From assembly GCF_900199515.1 (NCBI RefSeq), contig NZ_LT963434.1, positions 513,272-545,271 of the forward strand: a stretch of 32,000 nucleotides of DNA. Reading direction: 5' to 3'. Made by a program: the position numbers and the translations under genes. This DNA comes from Massilicoli timonensis. GTDB taxonomy: Bacteria; Bacillota_I; Bacilli_A; Erysipelotrichales; Erysipelotrichaceae. The notes beneath the pieces are model-generated. The model did no database searches. It was not told the DNA's origin and was given only the letters and a program-made list of their open reading frames with translations. How positions within the stretch are numbered: the stretch's first letter is position 1; the number at the start of each line of letters is the position of its first letter. Shown here one piece after another: positions 3,811 through 18,505 of the stretch.

Positions 3811-4872
3811 CTAAAGCGATTTCAGTTTTTGAAGTATCAAAATAGTATGTTGAATTGAAATATCTATATTGAAAAGTGGCTCCCATCCAATTCCTGTAAT
3901 TTTGGTCACGTCTAAAAGGGCTTTAGTAGCTAAGGAATATCCTTTTCTTTCTAATTCATTTGGCAATTCAAAAACAACTTTGGTGCCAACAAATGAAGAT
4001 ATTTTAGTAGCCAACTCTTTTAGCGTAATATCTAAATTTGGATTACAAATATTATATGCCTCCCCCTTTTCTCCATCAAAGAGTATTTTCAATATACCAT
4101 ATACAGCATCAGCAACATAACAATAAGAAAAAAGCTGTTCACCTTTACTCTTTAATATAATGTCTTTATTTTCAATTGCTCTTAAAATAAATTGTGATAA
4201 AGCCTTTGTGTCGTTCATCAGCATCGTGGGCCCAAAAACACGTGATAAGCGAGGAACAACTATATCTAATCCATATTTTTCTGAATATGCTTGACAGAGT
4301 GATTCACCAACTCGTTTACTTTCTGGATAACCTGCTCTCAAAGTGTTACAGTCAATATATCCGCAGTATTTCTCGCCAAATTTATCAACATCTCCTTTAT
4401 TCTCACCATATATTTCGACAGTTGACAGAAATATAAAACGTTTACAATTTTTATCCTTGGCTATTTCCAATAATCGTTGCGTTGCAATAACATTAGAAGT
4501 AATCGTGCCGATTGGATCGGCAGAATATGCCATAGGGTGTGTATTACTAGCAGCATGTAAAATATAATCAAATCTATTTTCATCCAAAACAAAGGAGGTA
4601 TTGATATCTAATTCTATAAAACTGAACAAATTATTATTAAAATAATTAAACCTTTTCTTCGCTTTATCGATACTTCTCCCAATAGCAAACACGTGGCAAT
4701 TCAAATTATCTTCAAAGTTTTTTTTCATTATAACATCTATTAGAAAACTTCCTATCATTCCAGTAGCGCCTGTAATAAGAAAACTAGAGTTCTTTAATTT
4801 TTTCCAATCTAAATTCATTTTTGATATGCTTTTTAGATCTTCTTGATAAATTTTATTTTCTACTAAGTACAT
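3811..4872 (-). CDS. NAD(P)-dependent SDR (epimerase/dehydratase family); probable reductase partner of the adjacent cytidylyltransferase (CDP-alditol synthesis)
   Basis: It has the Rossmann motif ITGATGMIGSF and a catalytic YPESK (YxxxK). It sits immediately downstream of a TarI/IspD-like gene, mirroring the domain order of bifunctional Bcs1/Acs1-type CDP-ribitol synthases. Confidence 0.7.
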   Translation of the reverse strand: MYLVENKIYQEDLKSISKMNLDWKKLKNSSFLITGATGMIGSFLIDVIMKKNFEDNLNCHVFAIGRSIDKAKKRFNYFNNNLFSFIELDINTSFVLDENRFDYILHAASNTHPMAYSADPIGTITSNVIATQRLLEIAKDKNCKRFIFLSTVEIYGENKGDVDKFGEKYCGYIDCNTLRAGYPESKRVGESLCQAYSEKYGLDIVVPRLSRVFGPTMLMNDTKALSQFILRAIENKDIILKSKGEQLFSYCYVADAVYGILKILFDGEKGEAYNICNPNLDITLKELATKISSFVGTKVVFELPNELERKGYSLATKALLDVTKITGIGWEPLFNIDISIQHTILILQKLKSL

Positions 4873-4873
4873 T

Positions 4874-5587
4874 TTATTTTATCCAACTTTCTTTTTTCGT
4901 GTTAAGTAATGACTTAAATATTTCAATATCCTCTGTTGTTGTTATTTTCAAGTTTTTTTCTGATCCTCTTGAAAAATAAGAATTTCTACCAAGTGCTTCC
5001 ATGAGTGAACACGAAGCAGCCATGTTTTTAATGCCTAATTTTTGTGCTTCTTGATAGGCATTGAGAATATCTCCCAAATAATATGTATGTGGAGTTTGAG
5101 TACGCCACAGGGACTCTCTAGGTATAGATTTATTCGAAGATATCCCTTTTTCAGAAACAAACACAACTTCAGTACAAGGAATGGCAGCAACTGCTGATCC
5201 AAATTGTGATAATTTCACTAAACTATCAGTAATAATTTCTTGTGCAATCATCGGTCTATTTCCATCATGAATCATAACTACATCATTTGCTAAATGATTT
5301 TTTGTAATAGCTTGTAACCCATTGTATATTGACTCTTGCCCAGTGTCACCACCAATGACAATATATTTTAGTTTTGTGATATTAAATTGTTTGGCATAAG
5401 CTTGTAATATTTGTTCCCATCCTTTCAAAATAACAACACATATCTCATCAATATTTGGATGATTTTGAAAAGCTTCTAAAGTATAAATAATAATTGGTTT
5501 ATTGTTTACATGAATAAACTGTTTCGGGATGTCCTGTAAAGTTCGTGTCCCTTTTCCAGCAGCAGTTAATAAGGCAATGTTACTCAT
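4874..5587 (-). CDS. IspD/TarI-family nucleotidyltransferase (probable alditol-phosphate, e.g. ribitol-5-P, cytidylyltransferase)
   Basis: The N-terminus LLTAAGKGTRTLQDIPKQF is the IspD/TarI signature, and the protein is 237 aa. An AAGGAG SD is present. The start overlaps the end of the upstream gene by 8 nt. Confidence 0.8.
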   Translation of the reverse strand: MSNIALLTAAGKGTRTLQDIPKQFIHVNNKPIIIYTLEAFQNHPNIDEICVVILKGWEQILQAYAKQFNITKLKYIVIGGDTGQESIYNGLQAITKNHLANDVVMIHDGNRPMIAQEIITDSLVKLSQFGSAVAAIPCTEVVFVSEKGISSNKSIPRESLWRTQTPHTYYLGDILNAYQEAQKLGIKNMAASCSLMEALGRNSYFSRGSEKNLKITTTEDIEIFKSLLNTKKESWIK

Positions 5588-6623
5588 ATGAAGTCTCCTT
5601 TATTGTATATTTATTTATTTTTTGAACTATTTTATCTGTAACATATCTAAATACTATTGCTAATAAAATCGTAATAGTAAAAGATGCTATTATATATATA
5701 TATATATTATTAAATAGTTTATTTAATAGAATCATTGGTATCCTTTGCAATATATATATTTCAAACAGATGATCCCCCATCCACTTTAAGATTTTATTAT
5801 GTAATGATATTTTTCTACTTAATAATACAACTAGTATTGAAAAGGATATCATCAATAAAATATCTACTAAAGCGTTAATAAGATTTAATCTAAAGAAAAG
5901 CGTAGCAATAAAGCAAATGATTAATAGAATCGCATACGTTTTATTATTATTTAGTATTCGATTAATTTTAGCTTCATTGAACGCAAAAAACATACCTACG
6001 TTATAACAAAGGGCTGTATCGTACCAATATAATTCTTTATTAAAGACATAACGCATGATAATAATATATGCCACTGTTAGCACGATTTGGAAAATACACG
6101 CATAGAAATTACTACCTTTGAATATACAAAAGGCAATATAGGTACATAGGTAAAGGGCTAAAATGGTAAATACATACCAATTACTGTTTCCCATTGAGTC
6201 GAAACCTATAAGTGATAAACAAAACGTTTGGAATGAAAATGATTCATGAAGCATCAACTTTATTAAAGCATAAATAAAAACAGCTATATCAAACCTTACC
6301 AAAGTTAAAAAGACTCTTTTATATGGTATAGCATCGACATATTCTTTCCCCTTTTTTATTATAGAATATGCTATTCCATATCCTGAATAAAAAAGAAATA
6401 ATGTTACCATTGTCTGTCCAAAAGATGTTATTAACTTATCCCATAATAAATCAAATTGATCAGTGTATGTAACGTAGGAGTTAAAATGACTAAAAAAAAC
6501 AAGTAAAATAAATATCCCTTTGATAGATGATGTTTTTTCTTTGCTTAGATAATCTTCTTGTGCCCCTATTTTAATACCTAGCAGACATATAAGCAAATAA
6601 ATAAATGCTACCACGATCATCAT
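5580..6623 (-). CDS. Membrane acyltransferase family 3 (polysaccharide O-acetyltransferase type)
   Basis: The protein is about 10-TM and very hydrophobic, with the N-terminal motif IKGIFILLVFFSHF (conserved His in TM1). A GGAGGT SD is present. Confidence 0.7.
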   Translation of the reverse strand: MMIVVAFIYLLICLLGIKIGAQEDYLSKEKTSSIKGIFILLVFFSHFNSYVTYTDQFDLLWDKLITSFGQTMVTLFLFYSGYGIAYSIIKKGKEYVDAIPYKRVFLTLVRFDIAVFIYALIKLMLHESFSFQTFCLSLIGFDSMGNSNWYVFTILALYLCTYIAFCIFKGSNFYACIFQIVLTVAYIIIMRYVFNKELYWYDTALCYNVGMFFAFNEAKINRILNNNKTYAILLIICFIATLFFRLNLINALVDILLMISFSILVVLLSRKISLHNKILKWMGDHLFEIYILQRIPMILLNKLFNNIYIYIIASFTITILLAIVFRYVTDKIVQKINKYTIKETSYE

Positions 6624-6624
6624 G

Positions 6625-7761
6625 TTATACCTCCAACCATTTATTCTTACTTATTATAAAATCAACAACCCGTTCAGAATTTTTATTATCTGACATATAA
6701 TTAATCAATTTCTTAATTCTATTTCGTTCCTCTTTTAATATATCTTCGCCATTAGAAACATTTTCTATAAATTTCATCAGATCTTGAACTGTGTATATTT
6801 TTTGTGCACCTGCCCAATAATAATCAATATTGATAGAAAATCCCGGGTTATCACGATACTCTTCTATATCTTCCCACACGGCACCAATCGGTTTATCACA
6901 TAACGTATAATCATAATATACAGATGAATAATCAGTTAATAATGCATCACAATTACCAAGAAATTCGTAAGAATTTATGTTATGAACTGTAAAGAAAGAT
7001 TCATCAATAAAAACAATATTCTTTAGATTTAGCTTTTTAAACATTTTTATATCTTGAGAAAAATGTGGTTTAATTACGATTAAAATATCATTCTTGCGAG
7101 CAAAATCGTTAATTGTAATAGCATTTCGTTCATCATCTATGATTGGAATCACAGTTGATGATCCGGTTTTTAGACCATTTTTATGCTGCCTAAAAGTAGG
7201 ATACCAAACAATAATTTTATTGAACTTTATATTAAACAAACTATGCAAATCTCGTTTGATGAAGAACGAATCATTACGTGGATATCCTAGTGCTACAGCT
7301 TTTGAATTAGCCATATTGTGCTGATATGCTGTTACTTCTGAAAATTCATTAGAGGCAACGAGAAAATTGTCAATATCTGATGAAATCGTATAGACCCCTT
7401 TTATTTTTTTAATCGGTGATCCATGTGTTAAAAAAAAGGAAAATTGCTTCTTGTTTAATTTTTTAAAACATTCATTACAGGTAATAATGCACTTCACTTT
7501 TAATCTATAATAAATAAAATGAATTTTATGAATAAAAGTTTTTCTATCAATGTATACAACATTTTTAATAACGGGAAAGCTTTTTGATTTATCACTTACT
7601 AGCCAAATCATCTTACATTTTTTATTGATTCCTCTTTTAATCATTTCATCAAAAACATCTTTGCTATTATCTGAAAAATCTGGGATGCTTTCAAATAAAA
7701 TCGCATTTTTTAACGGAATAAAGGAAAAGAAAAATATGATTATTTCTTTTATTATTTTCAC
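6625..7761 (-). CDS. CDP-glycerol/CDP-ribitol:glycosyl alditol-phosphotransferase (TagB/TagF/TarL family)
   Basis: It carries the Glyphos_transf motifs VWYPTFRQH and LLTDYSSVYYDYTLCDKPI. The GTG start overlaps the wzx stop (GTGA) and has an AGGAGG SD. Confidence 0.8.
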   Translation of the reverse strand: MKIIKEIIIFFFSFIPLKNAILFESIPDFSDNSKDVFDEMIKRGINKKCKMIWLVSDKSKSFPVIKNVVYIDRKTFIHKIHFIYYRLKVKCIITCNECFKKLNKKQFSFFLTHGSPIKKIKGVYTISSDIDNFLVASNEFSEVTAYQHNMANSKAVALGYPRNDSFFIKRDLHSLFNIKFNKIIVWYPTFRQHKNGLKTGSSTVIPIIDDERNAITINDFARKNDILIVIKPHFSQDIKMFKKLNLKNIVFIDESFFTVHNINSYEFLGNCDALLTDYSSVYYDYTLCDKPIGAVWEDIEEYRDNPGFSINIDYYWAGAQKIYTVQDLMKFIENVSNGEDILKEERNRIKKLINYMSDNKNSERVVDFIISKNKWLEV

Positions 7762-9221
7762 TTGTTAGTTCCTCCTAAAATGTTTGCCTTAAAGAAATTT
7801 GCTAAAAATCTGAAGTTTTTATTCTTAGTAATAATGCTTAATGCAATATATGAAATAATTCCAACAAGCACCTGAATAGATATAGTCAAAAAAGGAGTTA
7901 TTTGAATAAATCTTAAACTGTATACAATTAATCCCATAACTCCAGAAATTATGAAATTAGGCAATAAATCCATAATTTGATATCGGTATCTATAACCAAT
8001 AAGCTTCCTGTTTGGATAGGTATTTGATAATGTAGCGAAGAAAGTACATAGAACACTTGAAAATGCCAATTGTGTAGGAGTCGTTGAAAATATAATAAAT
8101 AATACGATTATAACAAAGTAGATAGCTTTTTTAATAATTTCTAATAATAGTAAAATATCACTTCTTCCAATAGCACGGATAACTTGTAAGTTTCCTGTTT
8201 GTATGATGTTAAACATGTAACTTATACAAAAAATCTGAACAAATGGTATGGCTTCAGCCCATTTATCTGTAAGCAACAATAATATAAAATTATCAGAAAC
8301 TGCAAAAAATCCTGTCATCAATGGAAAAACTAAATAAGAAGAAAGCTGCATGAATTTTCTCGTTAATTCCAATATATAGTCTGGATCATCTTGATATTTA
8401 GATAATATTGGGAATACGACAGCAGAAACAGTATCACTTATAGATGCGTTAACAATTACCGGAAAGCTTTTCCCTTTTGTATAGAAAGCCAAATCAGATC
8501 GAGAGTATTTTATGCCTATTATCAAGGGATTGATTTGTTCATATAATTCACTAATTATTGAAGATATAAAGATCTTCCAACCATAGTTAAATAAAGATTT
8601 TAGTCTTTTTATTGAAAAAGACATCTTAGGAAAAAACTTGGTAGATAGTGTTAAAAATATTGTATCAAATAAACTTAATACTAATTGCTGGGTCACTAAA
8701 GCCCATACTCCATAACCTCTTAAAGCCATTGTAACTCCAATAATTGCAGAAATGATAGTACCGATAAGCGTAGATATAAAAAACTTCCTGAATTCTAGAT
8801 TACTAGAAATATACGCTGTTACGATGGATTTATATGCATTTATAAAAAGGGAAATTCCCATTATCCGAATAATAGGAATTAGAAGCTCATTGTCATAGAT
8901 ATTTGCTATTGTTGGGGCACTAATGAATAATGTTGTATATATGACTATAGAAATAAGCATTGTAACAAAAAAAACTGATGAATAATCAATAATATCAGCA
9001 TCTTTTTTTTGAATGAGAGCTGTATTTAAACCACCAGATATTAAAATATTAGAAAAAGAAAAGAAAATAGTTACTAGACTAACAACGCTAAAATCTTCCG
9101 GAAGTAAAATTCTTGCTAAAATAATAGAAACTGCAAGAGAAACTAATTGAGCTATTATCCTTTCACTAAATTTCCATAGAACTCCGCTGATTGCTTTTCT
9201 TTTCATAAAATTGTTATCCAT
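7758..9221 (-). CDS. wzx: Wzx-type oligosaccharide flippase (MOP/polysaccharide biosynthesis protein family)
   Basis: The protein is polytopic (12-14 TM) with the typical Wzx N-terminus KRKAISGVLWKFSERIIAQLVSLAVSIILARILLPEDF. The start is set at ATG 9221 (MDNNF), which has an AGAGGTG SD 5 nt upstream. Confidence 0.8.
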   Translation of the reverse strand: MDNNFMKRKAISGVLWKFSERIIAQLVSLAVSIILARILLPEDFSVVSLVTIFFSFSNILISGGLNTALIQKKDADIIDYSSVFFVTMLISIVIYTTLFISAPTIANIYDNELLIPIIRIMGISLFINAYKSIVTAYISSNLEFRKFFISTLIGTIISAIIGVTMALRGYGVWALVTQQLVLSLFDTIFLTLSTKFFPKMSFSIKRLKSLFNYGWKIFISSIISELYEQINPLIIGIKYSRSDLAFYTKGKSFPVIVNASISDTVSAVVFPILSKYQDDPDYILELTRKFMQLSSYLVFPLMTGFFAVSDNFILLLLTDKWAEAIPFVQIFCISYMFNIIQTGNLQVIRAIGRSDILLLLEIIKKAIYFVIIVLFIIFSTTPTQLAFSSVLCTFFATLSNTYPNRKLIGYRYRYQIMDLLPNFIISGVMGLIVYSLRFIQITPFLTISIQVLVGIISYIALSIITKNKNFRFLANFFKANILGGTNK

Positions 9222-9275
9222 AAAAACACCTCTCATGTTGCATATATTTTTTCATTTTTATCATAAGTTCTCTAA

Positions 9276-10307
9276 TTAAATGCTTTTAATCCATACTCTA
9301 ATTTTCACAAATATTTCTACTATTGAAATAGGAAAAAATAAATAGACTATTCGAAAAACCTTTAAAGGAAACGTAACTCCTTTTGAATCTTTTAACTTCA
9401 TGCGAAAAGTAGAATTGTTTTTTAAATATTTGATAATTTTATTATAATTTCTATAATCACTGATTTTTGATGCAAAACTATATTCATCTACTAGAGCACT
9501 ATATATATTGCATAATAATATATCATTTATTTTTTTAGATGAATCTCTTGGAAGTTGATATTTATTAACTAATTCTTCAAATTTATCATCTAACTCTAAG
9601 TATCTATCAAATTTATCGAGATAATACTTTGATGATACAGTATTCCTACAGTTAATGATTCTATGATATATGTATAGGCTATCACTGATAGCAGTTATTG
9701 TAGGATAAAAACTCATTACCTTAATAACATAATTGACATCTTCAATTAAATTAACTTCATCTAAATATAGATTATTTTTATGCAAAAACTCTCTTTTGAA
9801 CACTTTATTACATAAAGAATTAAATAAAGATTTATCAATAATTTCATTGAAAATTTCACCTAGATAGACATTATATTTATTCTTATCAAAAAACTGTTCA
9901 TTTTTATAAATTTCAATATTATCATCCAAGCCTATCATAGTCATACCAAAGCAAAGTATGTCTGTATTGTACAATAAATAAGAGTGAATAACTTCTAATG
10001 CATTTTCCTTAATCATATCATCTGAATCTATAAACCATATAAAGTCATTAGTACCAATATCAATACCTCGATTTCTCGCAAGTGCAGGTCCTTTGTTCTG
10101 TTGATGAATCAGTGCAATATTAGTATATCTGTCAGCATAATATTTGCAAATATTATATGAATCATCAGTACTCCCATCATCAATTAATATAATTGAATCG
10201 TTATAAACATTTTGAATGCATAATTCTTTTAGAAGATTACTTATATTATTCTCACAATTATAAATTGGAATGATAATGTCTAATCTCATTTTACTATTGG
10301 CACTCAT
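9276..10307 (-). CDS. Family 2 glycosyltransferase
   Basis: It has the GT-A signature DIIIPIYNCENNI...IILIDDGSTDDS...DSDD. An AAGGAGGG SD lies 7 nt upstream of the ATG. Confidence 0.8.
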   Translation of the reverse strand: MSANSKMRLDIIIPIYNCENNISNLLKELCIQNVYNDSIILIDDGSTDDSYNICKYYADRYTNIALIHQQNKGPALARNRGIDIGTNDFIWFIDSDDMIKENALEVIHSYLLYNTDILCFGMTMIGLDDNIEIYKNEQFFDKNKYNVYLGEIFNEIIDKSLFNSLCNKVFKREFLHKNNLYLDEVNLIEDVNYVIKVMSFYPTITAISDSLYIYHRIINCRNTVSSKYYLDKFDRYLELDDKFEELVNKYQLPRDSSKKINDILLCNIYSALVDEYSFASKISDYRNYNKIIKYLKNNSTFRMKLKDSKGVTFPLKVFRIVYLFFPISIVEIFVKIRVWIKSI

Positions 10308-10428
10308 AATGTCACCCTCCTTTCAAAACAAAGAGAAAGTAGTTTTTGTTAAAATAATTTATAATAATGCATGAAAATTTCGCTTACAGTCAATTCGTTT
10401 TAATATCAATTTCTACCTATTTTAGTTT

Positions 10429-11544
10429 TTAATAAAAGCGCCAGTAATGATAAGCATTTACAAGTCTATACGCAAACATACCTAGACAAATAATCACTAA
10501 AACTATCGTGATTAAATTCTTTTTCATTTTAGATAAATGACCAATTTCCTTAAATAAGACTAAACTCATTATATATAAAATCGTTTGGTATCTTGATACG
10601 ATCAATGGGAAAGGCAATAGTCCTAAACATAATAAAATTAAAGACTTTGTCAGATTCATATAGTAAGATCCGTATTTTTTTTCAATTTCATCTCTAAACT
10701 TATAAAATAAGTACACAATTATAATAAACAATATCCAAGAACATATCATAGACCTAATATCTATAAATTGGAGATAAAAACTAGGATCTGCGTATATCTT
10801 TAATCTTTCTAATGCATCAGATAAAAACAATATACCTGTTGGAAAAAAATTACCTATAAGTAATCCAATATAAGATAAACATATCATTCCAAATGACAAC
10901 GTCTTGCACAGTTTATTCTTATCTGAAAAGATAGTCAGAATTTCTGCCATTGCGACTACTAATAATAAAGTCAAAGCTGCTGTATGTATCAGAACTGGAA
11001 TAATATAAAGAAGTTTATAACCTATTTTTTTAGGTGCATCAAATAAAAATATCAATAGAAACGATGCAATTGCTAAAGGAAAGCGGACACCACTTATTGT
11101 TTGATTAAGATAGATAAAACTTGCAAACATAATAAAATATAATGAAATATAGCGACTTTCTTTTACATCTTTGCATACTTTATTAGTGTATATAAAAATA
11201 CTGATATAAAAAATTGATGTTGAAATAAATGTTAACAAATTACTGTTATTCGTTAGAGAAACAAGATAAAAAAGAGTTGTTGTAATAATATTTATTTTAT
11301 ATGGAAATTGCGCGATATAATTAAGACCTTCTGTTTTAAAAGAATCAATCATCATAAAATATCTACTCAAATCATCTCCTTCATAAGGATCGGTGCATAA
11401 TGCAATGATTCCGACAGCAATAATAATGATAATTAAACTGTATATGCTTCGCTTTTTTACTGTTAAATTCAGAAATATATTAATATAATTAGCGATTAAG
11501 AAAAACAGACATAAAAAAACTGATAAATATCCTAGAATTTTCAC
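10429..11544 (-). CDS. wzy: Repeat-unit polymerase Wzy (EpsG-like membrane protein)
   Basis: This is a 371-aa protein with about 10-11 TM helices and no soluble domain. It sits among glycosyltransferases next to wzx, which suits an EpsG/O-antigen polymerase-like role. The start is GTG with an AAGGGGGA SD. Confidence 0.6.
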   Translation of the reverse strand: MKILGYLSVFLCLFFLIANYINIFLNLTVKKRSIYSLIIIIIAVGIIALCTDPYEGDDLSRYFMMIDSFKTEGLNYIAQFPYKINIITTTLFYLVSLTNNSNLLTFISTSIFYISIFIYTNKVCKDVKESRYISLYFIMFASFIYLNQTISGVRFPLAIASFLLIFLFDAPKKIGYKLLYIIPVLIHTAALTLLLVVAMAEILTIFSDKNKLCKTLSFGMICLSYIGLLIGNFFPTGILFLSDALERLKIYADPSFYLQFIDIRSMICSWILFIIIVYLFYKFRDEIEKKYGSYYMNLTKSLILLCLGLLPFPLIVSRYQTILYIMSLVLFKEIGHLSKMKKNLITIVLVIICLGMFAYRLVNAYHYWRFY

Positions 11545-11545
11545 A

Positions 11546-12643
11546 CTATTCCCCCTTCCTGCTGATTATTTGATCATAAAATCGAATTAAGTTCTCTGCT
11601 GTTTCATAAATATCAAATTGATCAAGAGTTTTGTTATATGGCCGTTTATCTTTTTTATAATTAATAATCAAATTGACCCAATCTTCTATATTAGTTTTAT
11701 TAATTCCACACTGTATAATATTATTATTTATAATTGATTCCTTTGATATTTTATTTGAAATTATTGAGAATAACGAAGAACATTGTGCTTCTATCAAAGA
11801 GACTGGAAAACCTTCAAAATATGATGGAAGTAAAAAAATATCAAAGAAACTATAGTACTTATATGAATCTTCGACCCTTCCAACTAAAACTATATTTTCT
11901 GACAACCCCAATTTTTCAATATATTTTTTAATTGTTTTTTTACTGTCACCATCACCCACAATAAATAATTTATAATTTCTGGTGTTATCTTTTTCTAAAA
12001 CTTCTTTCAAAATTTCCAAAGAAAAGTTTAAGTTTTTTTCAGGTGATAATCGGCACACCATTCCTATGACTATATCTTCATCACCAATACTATATTTTGT
12101 TCTAAGGTCATATCTATACACATTATTATATTTGAATTTATTTACATCAATACCATTGGGTATCCACTTGCCCTTCACGCCTTTTCCAAACGACCATTTT
12201 TTTGCAGCTATACCGCAATAGGCAAAATTTGTTGCCATTAATTTATTAAGATAATGAATAAATGCCCTTTTGAAATTAGTATTTTCATAATCCCCCATAC
12301 ATGTATGTGCATGGGCTATTCGTACCTTAATCCTACACATTTTAGCAATCATTAGCGGTAAGAAGCACATGTCACTTTGATGAGCGTGAACAGCATCAAA
12401 ATAGTTATTATTGTATATTTTTCTCAAATCTTCGAGATACTTAAAGATATTTTCTTTTTTTGGAGTAATGTGATATATATTACAGCCCAATTGAGATAGT
12501 TTTCTTTCAATAACTCCTATTTCATTCCCATGAACAATAAAATCCCATTTTATTCCTCTTCCATTAATTAATGAATAATAATTATATAGCATTGATTCTA
12601 TTCCACCAATATCTAATTTTGGAACAATATGAAGAATCCTCAT
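11546..12643 (-). CDS. Family 4 (GT-B) glycosyltransferase
   Basis: The C-terminal EX7E region is PSYFEGFPVSLIEAQCSS, and the N-terminus ILHIVPKLDIGGIE is typical of GT4. Confidence 0.8.
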   Translation of the reverse strand: MRILHIVPKLDIGGIESMLYNYYSLINGRGIKWDFIVHGNEIGVIERKLSQLGCNIYHITPKKENIFKYLEDLRKIYNNNYFDAVHAHQSDMCFLPLMIAKMCRIKVRIAHAHTCMGDYENTNFKRAFIHYLNKLMATNFAYCGIAAKKWSFGKGVKGKWIPNGIDVNKFKYNNVYRYDLRTKYSIGDEDIVIGMVCRLSPEKNLNFSLEILKEVLEKDNTRNYKLFIVGDGDSKKTIKKYIEKLGLSENIVLVGRVEDSYKYYSFFDIFLLPSYFEGFPVSLIEAQCSSLFSIISNKISKESIINNNIIQCGINKTNIEDWVNLIINYKKDKRPYNKTLDQFDIYETAENLIRFYDQIISRKGE

Positions 12644-12699
12644 ACTATCAACTTACCTCCCATTGCATAGCAAAACACTATAAACTGTTATAAATATAT

Positions 12700-13497
12700 T
12701 TACTTCCTTCTATTCTTTGACACAAAGATCCTTTTAAGATATTTTATATCCTCATAACAATCCAATATCTTCCTTTGAAAAAAAGAAATATATCCTTTTT
12801 CACTTGCTATTTCATGCATCATTTTTATTCCTTTATGCATTTTTTTCAAATTTCCTGATAGACCACTATGTCCATATGTCGGCTTCCCATCGCCACAAAA
12901 AACCAATGGTTCAATTGTATAATATAATCCAAAACAAGAAGCTACTTCTAAAAAAAAGATCCCTTCTTCAGCATGAGTCATTGATTCATTAAAATATAAA
13001 TCATTTTTGAAAAGACTTTTTCTAAAAATAATAGATGGGGTACATGGCCAATTCTTAATGCAATAACGGAATGGTGAAATTCTATATATAGAGTCAGTAA
13101 TCTTAGTGCCATATTTTATTATTTCACCTATTCTATTTGATCCTAAAACTTTGATATCAGTATATTTTTCTAAAATTTCATTTTGTATTTCCAATTTATT
13201 AGGCAACCAAACATCATCTGCATCTAACAATGCAATATATTCATTTCTAGTATTTTTTATACCTACATTTCTGGCCGATGAAGCACCACCATTTGTTTTA
13301 TTTAGTATTTTTATTTTTGAATTCTTTTCCAATATAAGTGAATTAACTATTTCTAGCGATTTATCAGTGGAACCATCATTAACAACAATTATTTCATCAA
13401 TTAAATCATATTTTGTTTGATTAATTACAGATTGTATTGTTTTTTCTATCGTACCTTCATTATTGTACATCGGAATAACTACACTGTATTTAATCAT
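12700..13497 (-). CDS. Family 2 glycosyltransferase
   Basis: It has the GT-A motifs YSVVIPMYNNEGTIEKTIQSVINQT, IIVVNDGSTDKS and LDADD. The start is set at ATG 13497, which overlaps the upstream stop (ATGA). Confidence 0.8.
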   Translation of the reverse strand: MIKYSVVIPMYNNEGTIEKTIQSVINQTKYDLIDEIIVVNDGSTDKSLEIVNSLILEKNSKIKILNKTNGGASSARNVGIKNTRNEYIALLDADDVWLPNKLEIQNEILEKYTDIKVLGSNRIGEIIKYGTKITDSIYRISPFRYCIKNWPCTPSIIFRKSLFKNDLYFNESMTHAEEGIFFLEVASCFGLYYTIEPLVFCGDGKPTYGHSGLSGNLKKMHKGIKMMHEIASEKGYISFFQRKILDCYEDIKYLKRIFVSKNRRK

Positions 13498-14090
13498 ATT
13501 TCCTCCCATTTCTCTTTATTCTCATTGAATCGTTTAATTATAGTAGCTGGAGAGCCAACTACCATACTATTCTCTTCTATACTTTTTGTTACAACACTGC
13601 TAGCACCTATCACAGAACCATTTCCTATTTTTACACCTTTCAAAATCACAACATTCTCTCCAATCCAAACATTATTTCCTATCTCAATAGGCGAAGAATA
13701 TATCTTTCTACAATCAGGAGGAGTATTAGGTAATACTTGTTCTCTATCATTATAACTTCCATGATCTAGATCGGAAATAAATACATGTGAAGCAATTAGT
13801 ACATTATCACCAATCTTTACAGAACTGGCGCTGGCAATATGCACATAATCGCCTATTTTCACGTTCTTACCAAAACTAATAACACCAAATGTATCACCAA
13901 CTTTAATGCTTTCTAAACGGCAACAATATCCACTTGTAAAACCATGATTAAAGTTTATATATTTCCCATTTCGTATGTAGCATGGATAACGGATCAATCT
14001 TGCTTGACGATGGAATATTTTTGTTGCTATCAAACTTACTGTATTTTTAATGATTTCATAAATACCATACTGCATTTTATCAATCCTCAT
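13494..14090 (-). CDS. Left-handed beta-helix (hexapeptide repeat) acetyltransferase
   Basis: It contains repeated [LIV]G-x4 hexapeptides (IGDNVLIASHVFI, IGNNVWIGENVVILKGVKIGNGSVIGASSVV). It resembles Maa/LacA-type sugar O-acetyltransferases. Confidence 0.75.
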   Translation of the reverse strand: MRIDKMQYGIYEIIKNTVSLIATKIFHRQARLIRYPCYIRNGKYINFNHGFTSGYCCRLESIKVGDTFGVISFGKNVKIGDYVHIASASSVKIGDNVLIASHVFISDLDHGSYNDREQVLPNTPPDCRKIYSSPIEIGNNVWIGENVVILKGVKIGNGSVIGASSVVTKSIEENSMVVGSPATIIKRFNENKEKWEEI

Positions 14091-15018
14091 TTTCTAAATG
14101 ATATCCCTTTAATAAATATAGCGCCTTAAATAAGAAGCTCTGTATTCTTGTTTGGCGATAAAGCTTTGTTGTACATACAAATTTTATCCTACTAAATAGA
14201 CCATCACAACTTCTAATAAAACATTCTAATTCTGTTAAATATTCTCTGTCTAAAGATGCCTTATATATGTTATAAAACTCATTAATCTGCATTGCATATT
14301 TTTTATTATCATTGTTTCTGATTCGCTTTACTCTCTCTTTGAACCAGCCAATTTTCCCTTCTCCAAAACCAACTTCATTGTTTTGGTGTTGTCGATAATA
14401 AACAAAAGAATCATTATTAAAAATGATCTTCCCTTTTACCATGGCCACATTCGTGATCCATGAATCATATACATAGATTTTCGCATAATTGATCGGTTTC
14501 TTTAATTCGTCCAATAGCACCTGATTCATCACTTGTTCATGTCCGGGTAAAAAATTCTGAATGATCGTGTTATAGAATGTAATTTCACGCTTCTTTTTTT
14601 GTGTTGTTCCGAATGGAATCAGATCATCATGCACCAAATAAGAAGTTGACGCATATAATAATGGAATTTTGCTATCTTCTTGCTCTAAGTATTTTACTGC
14701 TATATCTAATTTATTGTCTAACCATACATCATCCTGATCACTTAGTGAGTAGTAATCATAGCCGTTTGCCTCTTGTATCAACCAAAAGAAGCTTTTGTTA
14801 TAACCTATGTTTTCCCCCTCTACTACTTTGATTCTATCAGGATACTTCGTTTCATATTCCTGTAAGATATTCAGTGTATCATCATTTGACCCATCATCAC
14901 GAATCAACAAGTCCACCTGATGTTCTGTTTTTTGATACAGGATACTTTCAATTTGTGCACTAATATATTTCTCACCGTTATAGGCGGATAATAAAACAAG
15001 AATTCTTTTACTTTTCAT
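14080..15018 (-). CDS. Family 2 glycosyltransferase
   Basis: The sequence ILVLLSAYNGEKYISAQIESILYQ...DLLIRDDGSNDDT...SDQDD carries the GT-A DxD and nucleotide-binding signatures. Confidence 0.8.
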   Translation of the reverse strand: MKSKRILVLLSAYNGEKYISAQIESILYQKTEHQVDLLIRDDGSNDDTLNILQEYETKYPDRIKVVEGENIGYNKSFFWLIQEANGYDYYSLSDQDDVWLDNKLDIAVKYLEQEDSKIPLLYASTSYLVHDDLIPFGTTQKKKREITFYNTIIQNFLPGHEQVMNQVLLDELKKPINYAKIYVYDSWITNVAMVKGKIIFNNDSFVYYRQHQNNEVGFGEGKIGWFKERVKRIRNNDNKKYAMQINEFYNIYKASLDREYLTELECFIRSCDGLFSRIKFVCTTKLYRQTRIQSFLFKALYLLKGYHLENED

Positions 15019-15057
15019 ATATCAAATCTCCAAAATACTTTGTGATCAAGATCCGTT

Positions 15058-15672
15058 TCATTCCATCTCCCCCTTGTGCATCTCTCCTGTTCCTCCCTCT
15101 ACCACTCCATCTGATCGCAATACCGATGTGATCGTTTTGATCAAGCACTTCACGTCAAATAAAAAAGAGCTGCATTCCACATACTCTCCATCTAACTTCG
15201 CCTTTACTTCGATCTCCAATTCATCTCGTCCGTTGATCTGCGCCCATCCGCTTAATCCCGGCTTGATCTCATTGGCATGATAACGATCCCTTTCTTCTAT
15301 CAGATCATATTGATTCCATAGTGCCGGTCTCGGTCCGATGATCGCCATATCCCCCTTTAAGATATTCAAGATCTGCGGTAGTTCATCTAAGCTCGTCTTT
15401 CTTAAAAACCTTCCTGCCTTTGTGATATACTGATCCGGATTTGCCAATAGATGGGTAGGCATATCCTTTGGTGTATCCACATACATCGTACGAAACTTCA
15501 AGATATAGAAATAAGTTTTATCTTTTCCGACTCTTTTTTGCTTGAACAGGATCGGTCCCTTACTATCCAACTTGATCCAGACGCATAGGATCAGAAAGAG
15601 CGGACTCAATAATACCAATGCGATCAAAGACAACAAAAAGTCGATCCCTCTTTTTATATAATTTCGATACAT
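15058..15672 (-). CDS. Initiating undecaprenyl-phosphate sugar-phosphotransferase (small monotopic PglC/WbaP-C-terminal type 'bacterial sugar transferase')
   Basis: IKRGIDFLLSLIALVLLSPLFLILCVWIKLDSKGPILFKQKRVGKDKTYFYILKFRTM and DELPQILNILKGDMAIIGPRP are diagnostic of this family. Confidence 0.9.
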   Translation of the reverse strand: MYRNYIKRGIDFLLSLIALVLLSPLFLILCVWIKLDSKGPILFKQKRVGKDKTYFYILKFRTMYVDTPKDMPTHLLANPDQYITKAGRFLRKTSLDELPQILNILKGDMAIIGPRPALWNQYDLIEERDRYHANEIKPGLSGWAQINGRDELEIEVKAKLDGEYVECSSFLFDVKCLIKTITSVLRSDGVVEGGTGEMHKGEME

Positions 15673-15684
15673 TCCTTTTCCTCC

Positions 15685-16257
15685 CTAAATAATCGTACCC
15701 GCAGGAATATGCTGATTAGAAGGTATCCTTGTGCCTGCTTGTATTACACAATGACTCTCAATTCTGCATTTTTCTTGAATTAACGCTGCTGGACGAACTA
15801 TTACATTTGCATAAAGCAATCCATACGCTTCCACCTTTGCATCATGATGGATAACCGTATGAGCAGAAATAATATTACCTTCTCCAATCCATGCATTTGC
15901 TTCAATCTGTGCAAATGGAAATACAATCGTTCCTTTCCCAACCGCTGCATAAGGAGATACATCGGCTTTCGGACTAATCAATGTCACGATGCGATAACCG
16001 ATCATTTCTGCTTGCATACACCATTTTTTTCTCATTTCATTGTTTCCTATCGCAATGAAAATATCTTCATATTCAAGATAATACGAACACATCTCATCAA
16101 TTTTCCCGATTACTTTGCTGCCATTGATACAATCATGAACCATCTGATCATCTAAAAATGCTATTTCATCATAACAACTTAAACTCTTCGCAATATCTAA
16201 ACAGCATCTGCCATGTCCTCCGGCGCCTACAATTAACAGTTTTTTAATAAAAATCAC
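15685..16257 (-). CDS. NeuD/PglD-family sugar N/O-acetyltransferase
   Basis: An N-terminal Rossmann-like KKLLIVGAGGHGR is followed by C-terminal hexapeptide repeats (IGEGNIISAHTVIHHDAKV). The start codon is ambiguous: GTG 16257 lies inside the SD, while ATT 16248 has ideal spacing. Confidence 0.75.
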   Translation of the reverse strand: MIFIKKLLIVGAGGHGRCCLDIAKSLSCYDEIAFLDDQMVHDCINGSKVIGKIDEMCSYYLEYEDIFIAIGNNEMRKKWCMQAEMIGYRIVTLISPKADVSPYAAVGKGTIVFPFAQIEANAWIGEGNIISAHTVIHHDAKVEAYGLLYANVIVRPAALIQEKCRIESHCVIQAGTRIPSNQHIPAGTII

Positions 16258-16261
16258 CTCT

Positions 16262-16315
16262 AAAACAAAAAAAGAATATAGTTCCCCCTACCCATACGAT
16301 AACGAAACTATATCC
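16262..16315 (-). terminator. Candidate intrinsic terminator between the NusG-like genes and the biosynthetic genes
   Basis: The minus-strand RNA forms GGAUAUAGUU-22 nt loop-AACUAUAUUC, a 10-bp stem with one G.U pair. It is followed directly by UUUUUUUGUUUU. The stem is AT-rich and the loop is large, so the structure is weak. Confidence 0.35.
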
Positions 16316-16357
16316 AAATATTCAACACAGGCGGTAAACCAGCTCTCTGTCTCCTAT

Positions 16358-16849
16358 TCATCCTGTAATCACCAGACCGGCCTGTATCTCACGATTCATG
16401 AACGCAATATCCAAATAAGCCAATCGGTTATGTTTGTCGACCTTTTTTATATTTTTTTCAAATCGCTTCAGCGGCCCCTCATAGACCTTGGCCCTGTTTT
16501 CCTTCAATACCGCTTTTGACATTCTTAATACATGGCTGTCATCTAACAACTGCTCTAATAGCCGCACTTCTTCCTCACGCAAGGCACTTACTTCTTCATA
16601 CTTCAACTGTGCGATTATATCATCTCTCACTTCAATCATATGGCTCAGCAACAAATCAAATGAACGCTGGTCAATCGACGCTTTCACAAACACATAATTT
16701 GCAAATAAAGGCTTATAAGCATATCCATCTATATCTCTGCGATAATATTCCAACTGCGGTACAAAAGCATCGATTCCGTCATGTTGATTCAACTGCTTTA
16801 CCAGTTTGTCCATCTTCCATTTGAGACAGTATAAAATATACCAGTTCAT
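16358..16849 (-). CDS. NusG-family paralog (LoaP/UpxY/RfaH-like operon-specific transcription antiterminator), copy 2
   Basis: The NGN-like N-terminus is NWYILYC...DAFVPQLEYYRR...KPLFANYVFVKA. The KOW-like C-terminus is VYEGPLKRFEKNIKKVDKHNRLAYLDIAFMNREIQAGL. The ATG overlaps the stop of copy 1 (ATGA). Confidence 0.7.
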   Translation of the reverse strand: MNWYILYCLKWKMDKLVKQLNQHDGIDAFVPQLEYYRRDIDGYAYKPLFANYVFVKASIDQRSFDLLLSHMIEVRDDIIAQLKYEEVSALREEEVRLLEQLLDDSHVLRMSKAVLKENRAKVYEGPLKRFEKNIKKVDKHNRLAYLDIAFMNREIQAGLVITG

Positions 16850-17349
16850 ACCTTATTGACCACTTCCAGCGGTGCTTTCATCCTTGTCCCCAGCAACTGA
16901 CAGTCCAAATATGCAATGCGCTTATGGCGATCGATTTTTTTGATCTGCTGCTCCATCCCTTTTAGCGGGCCGCTTTCCACATTTAATTTTGAATTGATGA
17001 TATTACCGACGGAATGCCTGATCACACCATTTCCATCAAACATTCTTTCAAAAAATCGCTGTTCCTCCTCATCCATAGAAATCAATGCCTCTCCTTCCAG
17101 TAATTTTGCAAAGCGACTGATTTGGTGAAACAGATCCTGATAAGTCTGATGAAAATGCTCTTTACTCATATCCGCTTTTATAAACAAGTAATCCGGAAAC
17201 AGTAATATATTGCGATACTCCTTGGTATTCGCACCCGAAAACCATTTTTCCATCATTGGCAGAAATGCGTGAATCCCTTGTTGTTCATTAAAAAAGCGCA
17301 AAAGATCGTGACAATTTCCACTTTTTATATGAATAATGCACCAATACAA
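16846..17349 (-). CDS. NusG-family paralog (LoaP/UpxY/RfaH-like operon-specific transcription antiterminator), copy 1
   Basis: The NGN-like N-terminus is YWCIIHIKSG...HAFLPMMEKW...LLFPDYLFIKA. The KOW-like C-terminus is VESGPLKGMEQQIKKIDRHKRIAYLDCQLLGTRMKAPLEV. It has a TTG start at 17349 with an AAGGGGTG SD (17357-17364) 7 nt upstream. It is the first gene of the operon. Confidence 0.7.
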   Translation of the reverse strand: MYWCIIHIKSGNCHDLLRFFNEQQGIHAFLPMMEKWFSGANTKEYRNILLFPDYLFIKADMSKEHFHQTYQDLFHQISRFAKLLEGEALISMDEEEQRFFERMFDGNGVIRHSVGNIINSKLNVESGPLKGMEQQIKKIDRHKRIAYLDCQLLGTRMKAPLEVVNKV

Positions 17350-17367
17350 AAAAATTCACCCCTTGCG

Positions 17368-17394
17368 TTTCGTAGAACATGTTATTCTACGAAA
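17368..17394. repeat. Left recombinase core site (IRL): TTTCGTAGAA-CATGTTA-TTCTACGAAA
   Basis: It has 10-bp perfectly palindromic arms around a 7-bp asymmetric spacer. The whole 27-mer is the exact reverse complement of 18479-18505. The recombinase stop codon (TAG, 17389-17387) lies in the inner arm. Confidence 0.9.
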
Positions 17395-18325
17395 GAAAGG
17401 GGTGTTTGATCTTATTGATCTGTTCTTTCTTAAAGGCCAGTGAAGAATGTACATATCTTCCAAGGGTAATGGATACACTGGAATGGCCCAACATTTCACT
17501 CAAAGATTTCACATCAATACCGACTTCAATACATCTAGTAGCATAGGTATGGCGAAGCGCATGAAAATTGATCTGAAACTCTTTCTGTCTGCACAGCCTT
17601 TGAAATTGATACTGTATCGTCCTTGGATCGATCGGCAGATTTGAATCAGACAAGATATAATGCTTTTTCGTCAACTCATTATGATGATTACCATAATTTC
17701 TGATCAAATGCATCTTGATAAATTCAGGAACCGGGACCAGTCTTTTGGAAGATGGGGTTTTGGGTGTGCTTACCATCAAAACGGTCTTTCGGTTCGACTG
17801 TTCCTCATTTTCAATTCGCTGTGCTGTTTTTGAAATATAGATCACGCCCTGCTCCAAATCGATATCCTGCCACTGCAAGGCACATATTTCTCCAATCCGA
17901 AGTCCTGCGTATAAGCCAAATAGGATTGCCAGTGACAAAGCATCTTGTTTATAAAAGCAGTATTGTCTTAACTGGCTTTCCTGTTGATCCGAAAGAATTT
18001 GGAAATGCGTATGCTGACGAGGCATTTTTACATATTGAAAATCAATATGTGCAATGTCATACTTATTTTCAGCGAATGACAGAACAGAACGCAGTACATA
18101 GCGGATCGTCTGAATCGTACTGAGCGCATATTTATGTGATTGATAGATATCCATAAAAAAATGAACAATGGCATCTTCACTCATCTTCTGAGATAAAAAG
18201 AACGGCTGTAACTGCAATCGTATAATGCGCTTATACTTCACATAAGTAGACTGCTTGATCGTCATACGTTTTCGGCATAGCCATTCATCTGCAATGACCG
18301 TCATGCTGATTTTACTGTTTTTCAT
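17387..18325 (-). CDS. Tyrosine site-specific recombinase (phage integrase/XerC-D family)
   Basis: The catalytic signature is visible: GLRIGEICAL (Arg I), HALRHTYATR (His-x-x-Arg) and LGHSSVSITLGRYVH (His/Tyr). An N-terminal SAM-like core-binding domain is present. AGGAGG SD is present. Confidence 0.9.
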   Translation of the reverse strand: MKNSKISMTVIADEWLCRKRMTIKQSTYVKYKRIIRLQLQPFFLSQKMSEDAIVHFFMDIYQSHKYALSTIQTIRYVLRSVLSFAENKYDIAHIDFQYVKMPRQHTHFQILSDQQESQLRQYCFYKQDALSLAILFGLYAGLRIGEICALQWQDIDLEQGVIYISKTAQRIENEEQSNRKTVLMVSTPKTPSSKRLVPVPEFIKMHLIRNYGNHHNELTKKHYILSDSNLPIDPRTIQYQFQRLCRQKEFQINFHALRHTYATRCIEVGIDVKSLSEMLGHSSVSITLGRYVHSSLAFKKEQINKIKHPFLS

Positions 18326-18465: not shown

Positions 18466-18474
18466 GTGCTATAA
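18466..18474 (+). promoter_or_regulatory. Extended -10 promoter element TGcTATAAT facing out of the invertible segment through IRR
   Basis: This is a perfect TATAAT (18469-18474) with an upstream TG (18466-18467), preceded by an A/T-rich tract. The -35 (AGTATT) is poor. The predicted TSS is about 18481, inside the IRR arm. Confidence 0.5.
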
Positions 18475-18478
18475 TAAC

Positions 18479-18505
18479 TTTCGTAGAATAACATGTTCTA
18501 CGAAA
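18479..18505. repeat. Right recombinase core site (IRR): TTTCGTAGAA-TAACATG-TTCTACGAAA
   Basis: The arms are the same as in IRL and the 7-bp spacer is the reverse complement of the IRL spacer. The two sites are therefore in inverted orientation. Confidence 0.9.

Follow-up and report, generated by a model that had tools for sequence, protein, structure and literature searches.

Two adjacent genes at the head of a polysaccharide operon of Massilicoli timonensis encode members of the NusG superfamily, each consisting of an NGN and a KOW domain and each nearest to LoaP. The two proteins, called A and B here, are interpreted as a LoaP-type antitermination module at the head of a phase-variable operon, in which B would be the core factor acting at two RNA hairpins (P1 and P2) and A would be its accessory partner. 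The probability of this reading is put at roughly 0.55. The P1/P2 element, which the first-pass annotation of this DNA had overlooked, is the likely target of A and B. The positions of the features in the window, by which the entire analyzed stretch of 32,000 nucleotides is meant, are collected in Table 1.

Table 1. Features of the A/B locus, in window coordinates.
Feature	Position	Strand	Basis or detail
Gene A, LoaP-like NusG paralog, subfamily A	16846..17349	-	ORF, 167 aa, TTG start
Gene B, LoaP-like NusG paralog, subfamily B	16358..16849	-	ORF, 163 aa, ATG start
ATGA overlap (B start/A stop)	16846..16849	-	TCAT on the plus strand; ATG of B and TGA of A
P1, conserved RNA hairpin, candidate recruitment/binding site	16324..16351	-	Locus comparison, covariation
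P2, intrinsic terminator, sequence-conserved	16267..16315	-	Stem GGAUAUAGUUUC/GGAACUAUAUUC, G-rich inner arm GGGUAGGGGG, U7 tail 16267-16273
Wzx/Wzy-type polysaccharide operon	3811..16257	-	Pfam
Proximal recombination site	17368..17395	.	10-bp inverted arms TTTCGTAGAA/TTCTACGAAA, 7-bp asymmetric core
Distal recombination site	18478..18505	.	Perfect 28-nt inverted repeat with 17368..17395
Tyrosine recombinase, 312 aa, inside invertible segment	17387..18325	-	Pfam Phage_integrase, E = 8.6e-27
Outward extended -10 promoter	18467..18475	+	TGCTATAAT (TGnTATAAT), 2 nt inside distal site

The first-pass annotation had described two adjacent ORFs of 167 and 163 residues with an ATGA overlap, and its coordinates are correct; the strand, which it left unstated, is minus. 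It had also placed the two ORFs first in the switched operon, and gene A does directly follow the invertible promoter. The orthologues of A carry ATG at the position of its TTG start codon, and a ribosome-binding site, AAGGGGTG, is found 7 nt 5' of the start. The 4-bp overlap is present in 11 of 15 core-clade loci (the window, L001, L002, L005, L012-L017 and L022) and is replaced by gaps of 1-8 nt in L018-L021. Because of this overlap, A and B are proposed to be translated in a coupled fashion. The two proteins are 29% identical across 164 residues (BLASTP, E = 1e-26), which is far beyond chance and agrees with an earlier estimate by eye of about 25-30%. The NGN-like N-terminal motifs and the shared C-terminal block quoted earlier are all found in both proteins, WCII of A corresponding to WYIL of B, AFLP to AFVP, LFPDYLFIKA to LFANYVFVKA, and GPLKGMEQQIKKIDRHKRIAYLD to GPLKRFEKNIKKVDKHNRLAYLD. 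A has a near-neutral pI of 7.8 (family median 6.6), whereas the B family is basic, with a median of 8.7. The charge of the NGN core is +4.7 in B and -0.2 in A; the KOW domain of A is basic.

Profile searches uphold the membership of both proteins in the NusG superfamily. The Pfam NusG NGN family (PF02357, cut-off 22.2 bits) is matched by A with 34.8 bits (E = 2.4e-8) and by B with 39.2 bits (E = 1e-9), and the NGN-like character that had been noticed in the N-termini is thus borne out. The best-scoring family is LoaP of NCBIfam (NF033641), which is matched over the full length (profile positions 1-156 of 166) with 99.3 bits by A and 95.6 bits by B, both missing its cut-off of 125 bits. Far weaker are the matches to UpxY (NF033644; A 40.3 bits, B 40.9 bits, cut-off 100) and RfaH (TIGR01955; 23.8 and 29.7 bits, respectively, cut-off 144.5), again under the cut-off in every case. 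The earlier assignment to the specialized, operon-linked NusG paralogs therefore holds, with LoaP as the closest of them. None of the non-NusG Pfam families scores above threshold for either protein, and at E <= 1 B matches NusG NGN alone and no UpxZ family, so that B is itself a NusG paralog. A Pfam search gives no KOW match in A or B. Their C-terminal regions align, however, to the KOW domain of Protein Data Bank entry 8f5g, which phmmer finds at E = 1.7e-9 for A and 4.8e-10 for B, and are also covered by the full-length LoaP and NusG profiles.

The AlphaFold2 models of A (pLDDT 88.9, pTM 0.84) and B (pLDDT 88.5, pTM 0.81) each combine an NGN α/β fold with a β-barrel KOW domain. The two models are bound to look alike to some extent because the alignments used for prediction mixed both paralogs and single-copy relatives. 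The predicted KOW domain is a five-stranded β-barrel (residues ~111-165, pLDDT >90), so the claim of a KOW-like C-terminus stands even though the Pfam KOW profile is silent. No RfaH-like α-helical hairpin, another feature that had been raised for this domain, is present in the KOW domain of either model; each prediction gives a single, all-β state, which is compatible with fold switching. The best Foldseek match, over the full length, is 8f5g for both A (E = 4e-14, TM 0.72) and B (E = 5e-12, TM 0.77-0.81), and the NGN domains of NusG and RfaH are matched as well. The entry was deposited as 'NusG-RNA complex'; a crystal structure of a LoaP-RNA complex is among the works that PMC12691694 cites (its ref. 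55), and from the two together we infer that 8f5g is that complex. A and B both keep the LFPxYxF motif of the NGN strand, which in the alignment to RfaH falls on the strand LFPNYLF. A strand of this type contacts RNA polymerase in RfaH.

Apart from L017, each pair locus has the P1 hairpin 3-20 nt past B; single-gene loci lack it. Its apex, GC-N-GGUUUACC-GC, is invariant, with GGUUUACC at 16333-16340 and a UUUA loop. Eight of the 11 base pairs of P1 have changed on both sides, a degree of covariation matched by 0 of 500 shuffles and much higher than in slid controls. P2 follows about 8-16 nt after P1; it has a loop of more than 8 nt, was missed by the terminator scan and was located by comparing loci. 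Together, the hairpins fold with -25.7 kcal/mol (z = -2.4). A covariance model of the element matches positions 16267-16354 with 82 bits (E = 2.5e-14), and its matches are found only directly after B-type genes. An Rfam search (E <= 10) of positions 15500-19000 returned only chance snoRNA-like matches and nothing, EAR included, at P1/P2, which is a candidate for a new RNA family. A pattern scan for P1 followed by P2 in metagenomes gave 102 matches, of which 78 were due to chance in unrelated environments; the 24 real ones add little diversity. The consensus of the ops element is matched 10 times in the window, with 11 matches expected, and ops was rejected as a candidate. One ops-like sequence, GGCGGTAAACC, is treated as a coincidence because it is on the template strand of P1.

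The distance from the U-run of P2 to the first biosynthetic start codon is about 10-20 nt. This gap leaves no room for a promoter, and expression of the biosynthetic genes should thus need read-through of P2. The lack of space is the sole argument against a separate downstream promoter, and P2 could also merely end the A-B transcript. According to Pfam, the operon encodes a PglD-like acetyltransferase, an initiating sugar transferase, GT2 and GT4 glycosyltransferases, an EpsG-like polymerase, a flippase, a TagF-like glycerophosphotransferase, an acyltransferase, an IspD-like cytidylyltransferase and an epimerase.

Upstream of A, two lox-like sites, the only ones in the window (0 expected), bound an invertible segment of 1.1 kb. 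The segment holds the gene of a tyrosine recombinase and an outward-facing promoter. Related loci from Erysipelotrichales to Dorea share this family of sites, and recombinase homologues adjoin the pair in L001, L005, L009, L012-14, L018 and L021. The promoter has a poor -35 region and was missed by the promoter scan; comparing loci located it, TGnTATAAT being at the same place in seven of them. It faces away from A in the window, L001, L005, L013 and L014, and toward A in L012 and L022. The window is thus in the OFF orientation, its promoter pointing away from A and B. Metagenome contigs of the same species occur in both orientations, and in the flipped ones the promoter, now 12 nt 5' of the proximal site, faces into A. 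The proximal site then becomes part of the 5' leader of A. Some expression of A and B in the OFF orientation is plausible because the recombinase gene is co-directional and no canonical terminator is found in between.

The pair is found in at least 16 species-level GTDB genomes, mainly of Erysipelotrichales, and in metagenome contigs. About 60 related loci carry one LoaP-like gene instead, in line with the first-pass view that a tandem pair is unusual. Literature searches for tandem LoaP or NusG paralogs found no description of such an arrangement; the nearest parallel comes from Eggerthella lenta, where LoaP adjoins CPS clusters that invert (bioRxiv 10.64898/2026.04.24.720693). The core-A clade (15/15) and the B clade (18/18) are each monophyletic. 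Both genes are under purifying selection (dN/dS 0.06-0.33 for the two together, 0.09-0.33 for A), and A evolves faster, its mean pairwise identity being 46% compared to 56% for B. All family-invariant residues are retained by both. A origin by recent tandem duplication was rejected: A is 27% identical to B but 30% identical to single-copy relatives, to which B is 29% identical, and the neighbor-joining tree has no exclusive A-B sisterhood. Sequence comparison thus makes A and B two distinct, long-lived subfamilies, and the pair is no local accident. The same set of parts turns up across many related bacteria of the gut and thus probably represents a known antitermination system in a two-protein form.

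Co-occurrence of A and B is strict in Erysipelotrichales; some loci depart from the pair. B is present without A in two metagenome contigs (L141 and L182), both with P1/P2, and A is degraded in L066. In Lachnospiraceae, the upstream partner is of a different lineage, and B and P1 are retained. A single protein is followed by a P2-like terminator in L023.

The proposed mechanism would begin with the segment flipping to ON, upon which the TGCTATAAT promoter would transcribe through the site hairpin into A and B. Past B, the transcript would fold into P1 and then, some 8-16 nt on, into the terminator P2, and expression of the biosynthetic genes would depend entirely on read-through of P2 by the polymerase. 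By analogy with LoaP, A/B proteins would load at P1 and render the polymerase resistant to termination at P2 and beyond. Both domains of LoaP bind the hairpin of its leader, and the protein opposes the termination that NusA stimulates (PMC12691694); a similar antitermination is suggested for P2. It is co-conservation that assigns B, putatively, to P1. B would be the core factor, being co-conserved with P1/P2, having a basic NGN domain and sometimes occurring alone; A, with its faster evolution, neutral NGN domain and basic KOW domain, may be an accessory or modulating partner. If the shared LFPxYxF motif contacts RNA polymerase, A and B should compete for one polymerase site, and this competition is left unexplained by the model.

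LoaP of Bacillus velezensis and Thermoanaerobacter is the best match in both profile and fold, and the systems have further features in common. The loaP gene adjoins its target operon; its hosts are Firmicutes, and it is linked to polysaccharide clusters (PMC12691694). In the target leader of LoaP, a small hairpin precedes an intrinsic terminator; P1 and P2 are their conserved candidate counterparts, with binding to P1 predicted. The compact NGN-KOW architecture with an all-β KOW domain, predicted for A and B, is shared too. Where LoaP is a single protein, the locus here encodes a divergent pair, and each member scores under the curated LoaP cut-off. The P1 apex is GGUUUACC with a UUUA loop instead of the UNCG tetraloop of LoaP, the P1/P2 element is 3' of the regulator genes and within their transcript, and the operon is under an invertible promoter. 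The gene order of the Bacteroides UpxY/UpxZ loci is similar, namely an invertible promoter, a NusG paralog in first place, a second small regulator and then the capsule operon, and these too are phase-variable capsules of a gut commensal (PMC11685472). However, B, in second place, is itself a NusG paralog; UpxZ is no relative of NusG and docks on the surface through which UpxY binds RNA polymerase (PMC11685472). The UpxY profile is matched with only ~40 bits against a cut-off of 100. What is recognized here is probably an RNA hairpin instead of non-template or upstream DNA. The invertible segment contains the recombinase gene, and there is no evident hierarchy of loci because each of the 16 pair genomes has one locus, compared to eight in Bacteroides. 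RfaH is likewise a specialized NusG paralog for long envelope-polysaccharide operons and has the LFPxYxF NGN motif in common with A and B, but its profile is matched with only 24-30 bits against ~144, ops is not above chance, the KOW domains are predicted to be all-β, and A and B are encoded in cis at the operon head. The eps-associated RNA (EAR) of Bacillales, which PMC12691694 cites (its ref. 79), lies near the start of a polysaccharide operon; this conserved RNA permits terminator read-through. It accomplishes processive antitermination through RNA, without a dedicated NusG paralog, whereas A and B are such paralogs and no Rfam family, EAR included, matches positions 15500-19000.

Several other arrangements of the two proteins have to be weighed. 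A heteromeric or sequentially acting pair was one option put forward by the first-pass annotation, and the translational coupling and strict co-occurrence would agree with it. A and B might form an obligate heteromer, or a complex of two proteins and two hairpins, in a 1:1 ratio with neither sufficient alone; B might then be on P1 and A on the G-rich apex of P2, or the two might present a composite RNA-binding surface. This is doubtful, although the ATGA overlap is kept in most loci, A and B strictly co-occur in Erysipelotrichales, exactly two hairpins are conserved in sequence, and the charges are complementary, the NGN domain being basic in B and the KOW domain in A. Moreover, in the three loci where the A partner has been replaced (L009, L034 and L049), the P2 apex is altered too and P1 is unchanged. 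The B-only loci still carry P1/P2, however, the single protein of L023 is followed by a P2-like terminator, and the polymerase clamp helices are not known to accommodate more than one NusG-family NGN at a time. The somewhat broader proposal of obligate two-paralog antitermination, in which B would act at P1 and A at the P2 apex, or A would gate B, is possible but decidedly tentative. If true, it would be the first NusG-family duo on one transcription unit and would represent a delayed, self-reinforcing protein checkpoint layered on the DNA-inversion switch.

One paralog could instead be a negative regulator, either a brake within the locus or an inhibitor in trans of other LoaP-controlled loci. 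As a brake, A could compete with or sequester B, sharpening the ON/OFF transition and damping any leak that read-through from the recombinase gene might cause in OFF. Leaky expression in OFF is plausible, competition is physically plausible with both proteins retaining the NGN strand motif, some genomes have additional single LoaP-like loci (UBA3316, for example, with L034 and L087), and UpxZ is a precedent (PMC11685472). Nevertheless, a negative regulator is unlikely. A UpxZ-like decoy or cross-locus inhibitor had been suggested by the first-pass annotation, enforcing one capsule at a time if the genome had several such loci, but the scan of the best 80 of 234 matches gave one pair locus per assembly in 16 of 16 pair genomes. 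The same count led to the rejection of a multi-locus hierarchy of the UpxY/UpxZ kind. A decoy or degenerate paralog was also rejected, given the dN/dS values and invariant residues of both proteins; the sequence of A has no signs of degeneration, and UpxZ is not a NusG homologue, A and B having no other Pfam family above threshold. Less probable still is a tie of A to the DNA switch or the 5' leader, through ops- or UpxY-like loading at the site hairpin or through inversion, with B handling P1/P2. A is in all cases 20-55 nt away from the proximal site, whose transcript is a 10-bp leader hairpin, the B-only locus L141 has no recognizable site, and the site family is conserved as far as Dorea. 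That correlation is based on one or two loci, however, the 1 kb from the leader to P1 has no obvious terminator to bypass, ops-like matches are at chance level in the window, and we know of no NusG-family protein that influences recombination. Simple redundancy of a tandem duplicate, without division of labor, is the most improbable of all. A and B have a common fold, a common order of domains and a likeness to LoaP, but their identity of only 27-30% is not above that to single-copy relatives, their subfamilies are separately monophyletic, long-lived and under purifying selection, and their charge distributions are systematically different.

Specialized NusG paralogs such as RfaH, UpxY and LoaP are the main known route to the expression of long capsule, toxin and antibiotic operons. 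To our knowledge, a single paralog acts in every specialized NusG system described. The A/B pair therefore poses a mechanistic question, since two proteins apparently built for one polymerase site work on one operon. The experimental material is favorable: two small proteins, two short conserved hairpins, a natural ON/OFF switch and cultivable carriers (for example, Beduini massiliensis, Longibaculum muris and Thomasclavelia saccharogumia). For the gut Erysipelotrichales, the proposed module would mean that a Bacteroides-like logic of polysaccharide phase variation, an invertible promoter followed by a NusG-type checkpoint, has been put together from LoaP-type parts. Such a design would bear on the evasion of phages and of immune responses by a group of gut microbes that has received little study.

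The products of A and B, the upstream and downstream genes of the tandem pair, are NusG paralogs, as the first-pass annotation had claimed. Each passes the Pfam threshold for the NusG NGN domain, and LoaP is the top NCBIfam family for both, with full-length matches of 99 bits (A) and 96 bits (B) that lie under the curated LoaP cut-off of 125 bits. The scores against UpxY (40 bits), RfaH (24-30 bits) and the housekeeping NusG (25 bits) are far lower. The two ORFs and their ATGA overlap, formed by the ATG of B and the TGA of A, are where the annotation had placed them. Every motif it quoted is present, and its estimate by eye of 25-30% identity agrees with BLASTP (29% across 164 residues, E = 1e-26). 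Orthologues of A have ATG in place of the TTG start, and the ribosome-binding site, AAGGGGTG, is 7 nt upstream.

AlphaFold2 modelled both proteins with high confidence (pLDDT 88.9 and pTM 0.84 for A, 88.5 and 0.81 for B). Both models consist of an NGN domain and a five-stranded all-β KOW domain, which bears out the KOW-like C terminus described earlier. The RfaH-like α-hairpin suggested as a check is absent from both models, each a single AlphaFold2 state that is blind to fold switching. The top Foldseek match of both models, over the full length (TM 0.72-0.81), is 8f5g, a 'NusG-RNA complex', which is also the sole strong match among PDB sequences (E = 1.7e-9 for A, 4.8e-10 for B). From its deposited name we take 8f5g to be the LoaP-hairpin co-crystal; the code was found in no paper.

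Features of the regulatory head of the operon in the window
Feature	Position	Strand	Basis or remark
Gene A	16846-17349	minus	167 aa ORF, TTG start
Gene B	16358-16849	minus	163 aa ORF
P1 hairpin	16324-16351	minus	locus comparison, covariation
P2 with U-run	16267-16315	minus	sequence-conserved hairpin, then U residues
Tyrosine recombinase gene	17387-18325		perfect 28-nt inverted repeats on both sides
Invertible 1.1-kb segment	17368-18505		carries the tyrosine recombinase gene
Extended -10 promoter	18467-18475	plus	locus comparison

Each 28-nt repeat is composed of 10-bp inverted arms, TTTCGTAGAA and TTCTACGAAA, with a 7-bp asymmetric core between them, an arrangement recognizable as the anatomy of a tyrosine-recombinase site. 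The window contains two such sites compared to 0 expected. In related loci, including Dorea, sites of the same family bracket an integrase, or a short segment without one, upstream of A. The promoter, TGnTATAAT, is a few nucleotides inside the site at the 5' end of the recombinase gene. It points away from A in the window and in L001, L005, L013 and L014, and toward A in Beduini (L012) and L022. In metagenome contigs of this species (A 98-100% identical), identical flanks enclose the segment in either orientation; the flipped contigs have TGCTATAAT 12 nt upstream of the proximal site, directed into A. The segment is a working invertible element, and A and B do head a switched operon, as proposed in the annotation. 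Compared with the flipped contigs, the promoter direction places the window in the OFF orientation, facing away from A and B. In the set L193-L208, L204 has a single site and lacks the recombinase segment, which may reflect deletion or assembly collapse. In the A transcript, the leader (17350-17395, minus strand) includes the proximal site, which folds into a 10-bp hairpin. The ribosome-binding site of A and a run of T residues follow it directly, so that the site may also affect translation or OFF-state read-through from the recombinase gene.

Two RNA hairpins, P1 and P2, spaced by ~8-16 nt, occupy the 80-150 nt that separate B from the next gene in all pair loci but L017. P1 has an invariant apex, GC-N-GGUUUACC-GC, above a lower stem that varies in sequence and keeps its pairing, both sides being changed in 8 of the 11 pairs; the observed covariation was reached by none of 500 shuffles, and slid controls were much lower. 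P2 is a sequence-conserved hairpin, GAAUAUAGU...GGGGUAGGGG...ACUAUAUUC, followed in most loci by six to eight U residues, and is by these features a predicted intrinsic terminator. The hairpin with the GGUUUACC apex and the terminator with the GGGGUAGGGG arm were noted in the range L001-L022, L034, L049 and L066. The first biosynthetic start codon follows the U-run by ~10-20 nt, and expression of the structural genes therefore seems to require read-through of P2. A covariance model trained on 14 loci finds matches directly 3' of B-type genes (82 bits, E = 2.5e-14 in the window) and a weak one after the single gene of L023; the remaining single LoaP-like genes have no match. No Rfam family matches P1/P2, a candidate new cis-regulatory RNA family.

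According to Pfam, the ~12 kb of minus-strand genes 3' of P2 specify polysaccharide synthesis of the Wzx/Wzy type and include TagF-like, IspD-like and acyltransferase genes. Strains of the species differ in the genes after B, as is usual for capsule loci. L202 and L195 have the switch, A, B and P1/P2 in common with the window and L201, and differ in the biosynthetic genes that follow (e.g. a missing PglD-like gene, other glycosyltransferases). The pattern suggests that capsule types are exchanged while the regulatory head stays constant. Within 16243-16262 (minus strand), the GTG at 16257 listed as the start of the PglD-like gene overlaps that gene's own ribosome-binding site (GAGGTG); since orthologues start with MKKLLIVG, the true start may be a non-canonical ATT at 16248. 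The mechanical ORFs of MurG (1324-2655, 443 aa) and the PolyA_pol/CCA-adding enzyme (21159-22874, 571 aa) have TTG starts and overlap a neighbor. The Pfam domains do not start until residues ~91 and ~145, so the genuine start codons probably lie downstream of these TTGs.

Homologues of B at 54-62% identity share the layout of the window: A overlaps B by 4 bp, and genes for a PglD-like acetyltransferase and an initiating sugar transferase come next. One genome per GTDB species was scanned, and ORFs were sorted by A- and B-specific HMMs. Among the best 80 of 234 matches, the A-B pair occurs in at least 16 assemblies, once per genome; the carriers include Erysipelotrichaceae MAGs, Beduini massiliensis, Coprobacillaceae, Thomasclavelia spp., Longibaculum muris and 'Clostridiales VE202-01'. 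In a few Lachnospiraceae, Oscillospiraceae and Dorea genomes the partner upstream of B is divergent. The paired arrangement is conserved, and it is also unusual, as had been suspected, since ~60 other loci among these 80 matches have a lone LoaP-like gene. In L034 (Lachnospiraceae; region 3352-3989) an oppositely oriented ORF, by eye resembling a small XRE-type regulator, separates the divergent upstream NusG-like gene from B, which is preceded by what looks like its own promoter; the pairing thus seems looser outside Erysipelotrichales.

The B proteins (18/18) and the core A proteins (15/15) are each monophyletic. A recent duplication was rejected because A and B (27% identity) are no closer to each other than A is to the single proteins (30%) or B is to them (29%). 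Both genes are under purifying selection (dN/dS 0.06-0.33) and retain all family-invariant residues. Mean pairwise identity is 56% for B compared to 46% for A, and 90% of locus pairs show the higher value for B. The B proteins are basic (median pI 8.7 versus 6.6) with a strongly positive NGN core (+4.7 versus -0.2), whereas the KOW domain is more basic in A (+4.6 versus +2.9). A-type proteins are rare, with 24 clusters (50% identity) at E <= 1e-30 in 1.84 billion representatives. B occurs without A at L141 and L182, and A is degraded at L066. The lone protein of L023 (Copranaerobaculum intestinale) is matched about as well by the A profile (144 bits) as by the B profile (147 bits). In the region 4001-4607 of L023, its gene by eye combines an A-like KOW (DRHKRIAYL) with a B-like NGN, and is followed by a P2-like terminator and by a distinct small hairpin with a UUAG loop. 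This one-protein arrangement may be related or ancestral to the pair.

Both domains of LoaP bind a leader hairpin, and LoaP counters NusA-enhanced termination at the downstream terminator and later ones (PMC12691694, citing the LoaP-hairpin co-crystal as ref. 55). The layout of the window, with a hairpin and then a predicted terminator, is analogous to that described for LoaP, from which we infer an antitermination sequence. Inversion to ON would direct the promoter into A and B. Transcription would halt at P2 until the two proteins build up, load at P1 and let the polymerase pass P2 and reach the biosynthetic genes. We favor, at a probability of roughly 0.55, a LoaP-type antitermination module with B as the core factor and A as an accessory. 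B is the likely core, being co-conserved with P1/P2, present in B-only loci and basic in its NGN domain; A would be the faster-evolving accessory. Family membership, fold, conservation, RNA structure and inversion are thus observed, whereas antitermination, the pairing of proteins with hairpins and the part played by A are proposals.

An obligate A/B heteromer, or one hairpin per protein, would fit the translational coupling and the complementary charges, but the B-only loci weaken this reading and we consider it unlikely. A negative-regulator role for one paralog is less probable still. Its UpxZ-like cross-locus version, raised in the annotation, requires multiple loci, whereas the pair occurs once per genome in the 16 assemblies from the best 80 of 234 matches. 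That A is tied to the transcribed recombination-site hairpin seems improbable, and simple redundancy, contradicted by the ancient, separately conserved A and B subfamilies, very improbable.

The searchable literature yielded no account of LoaP or NusG paralogs in tandem, nor of the P1/P2 element. The nearest report is of a lone loaP adjoining inverting CPS clusters in Eggerthella lenta (bioRxiv 10.64898/2026.04.24.720693). The locus resembles LoaP systems in its proposed antitermination and Bacteroides in its invertible capsule promoter. To these known kinds it adds a second paralog and an RNA element that is a candidate for a new family.
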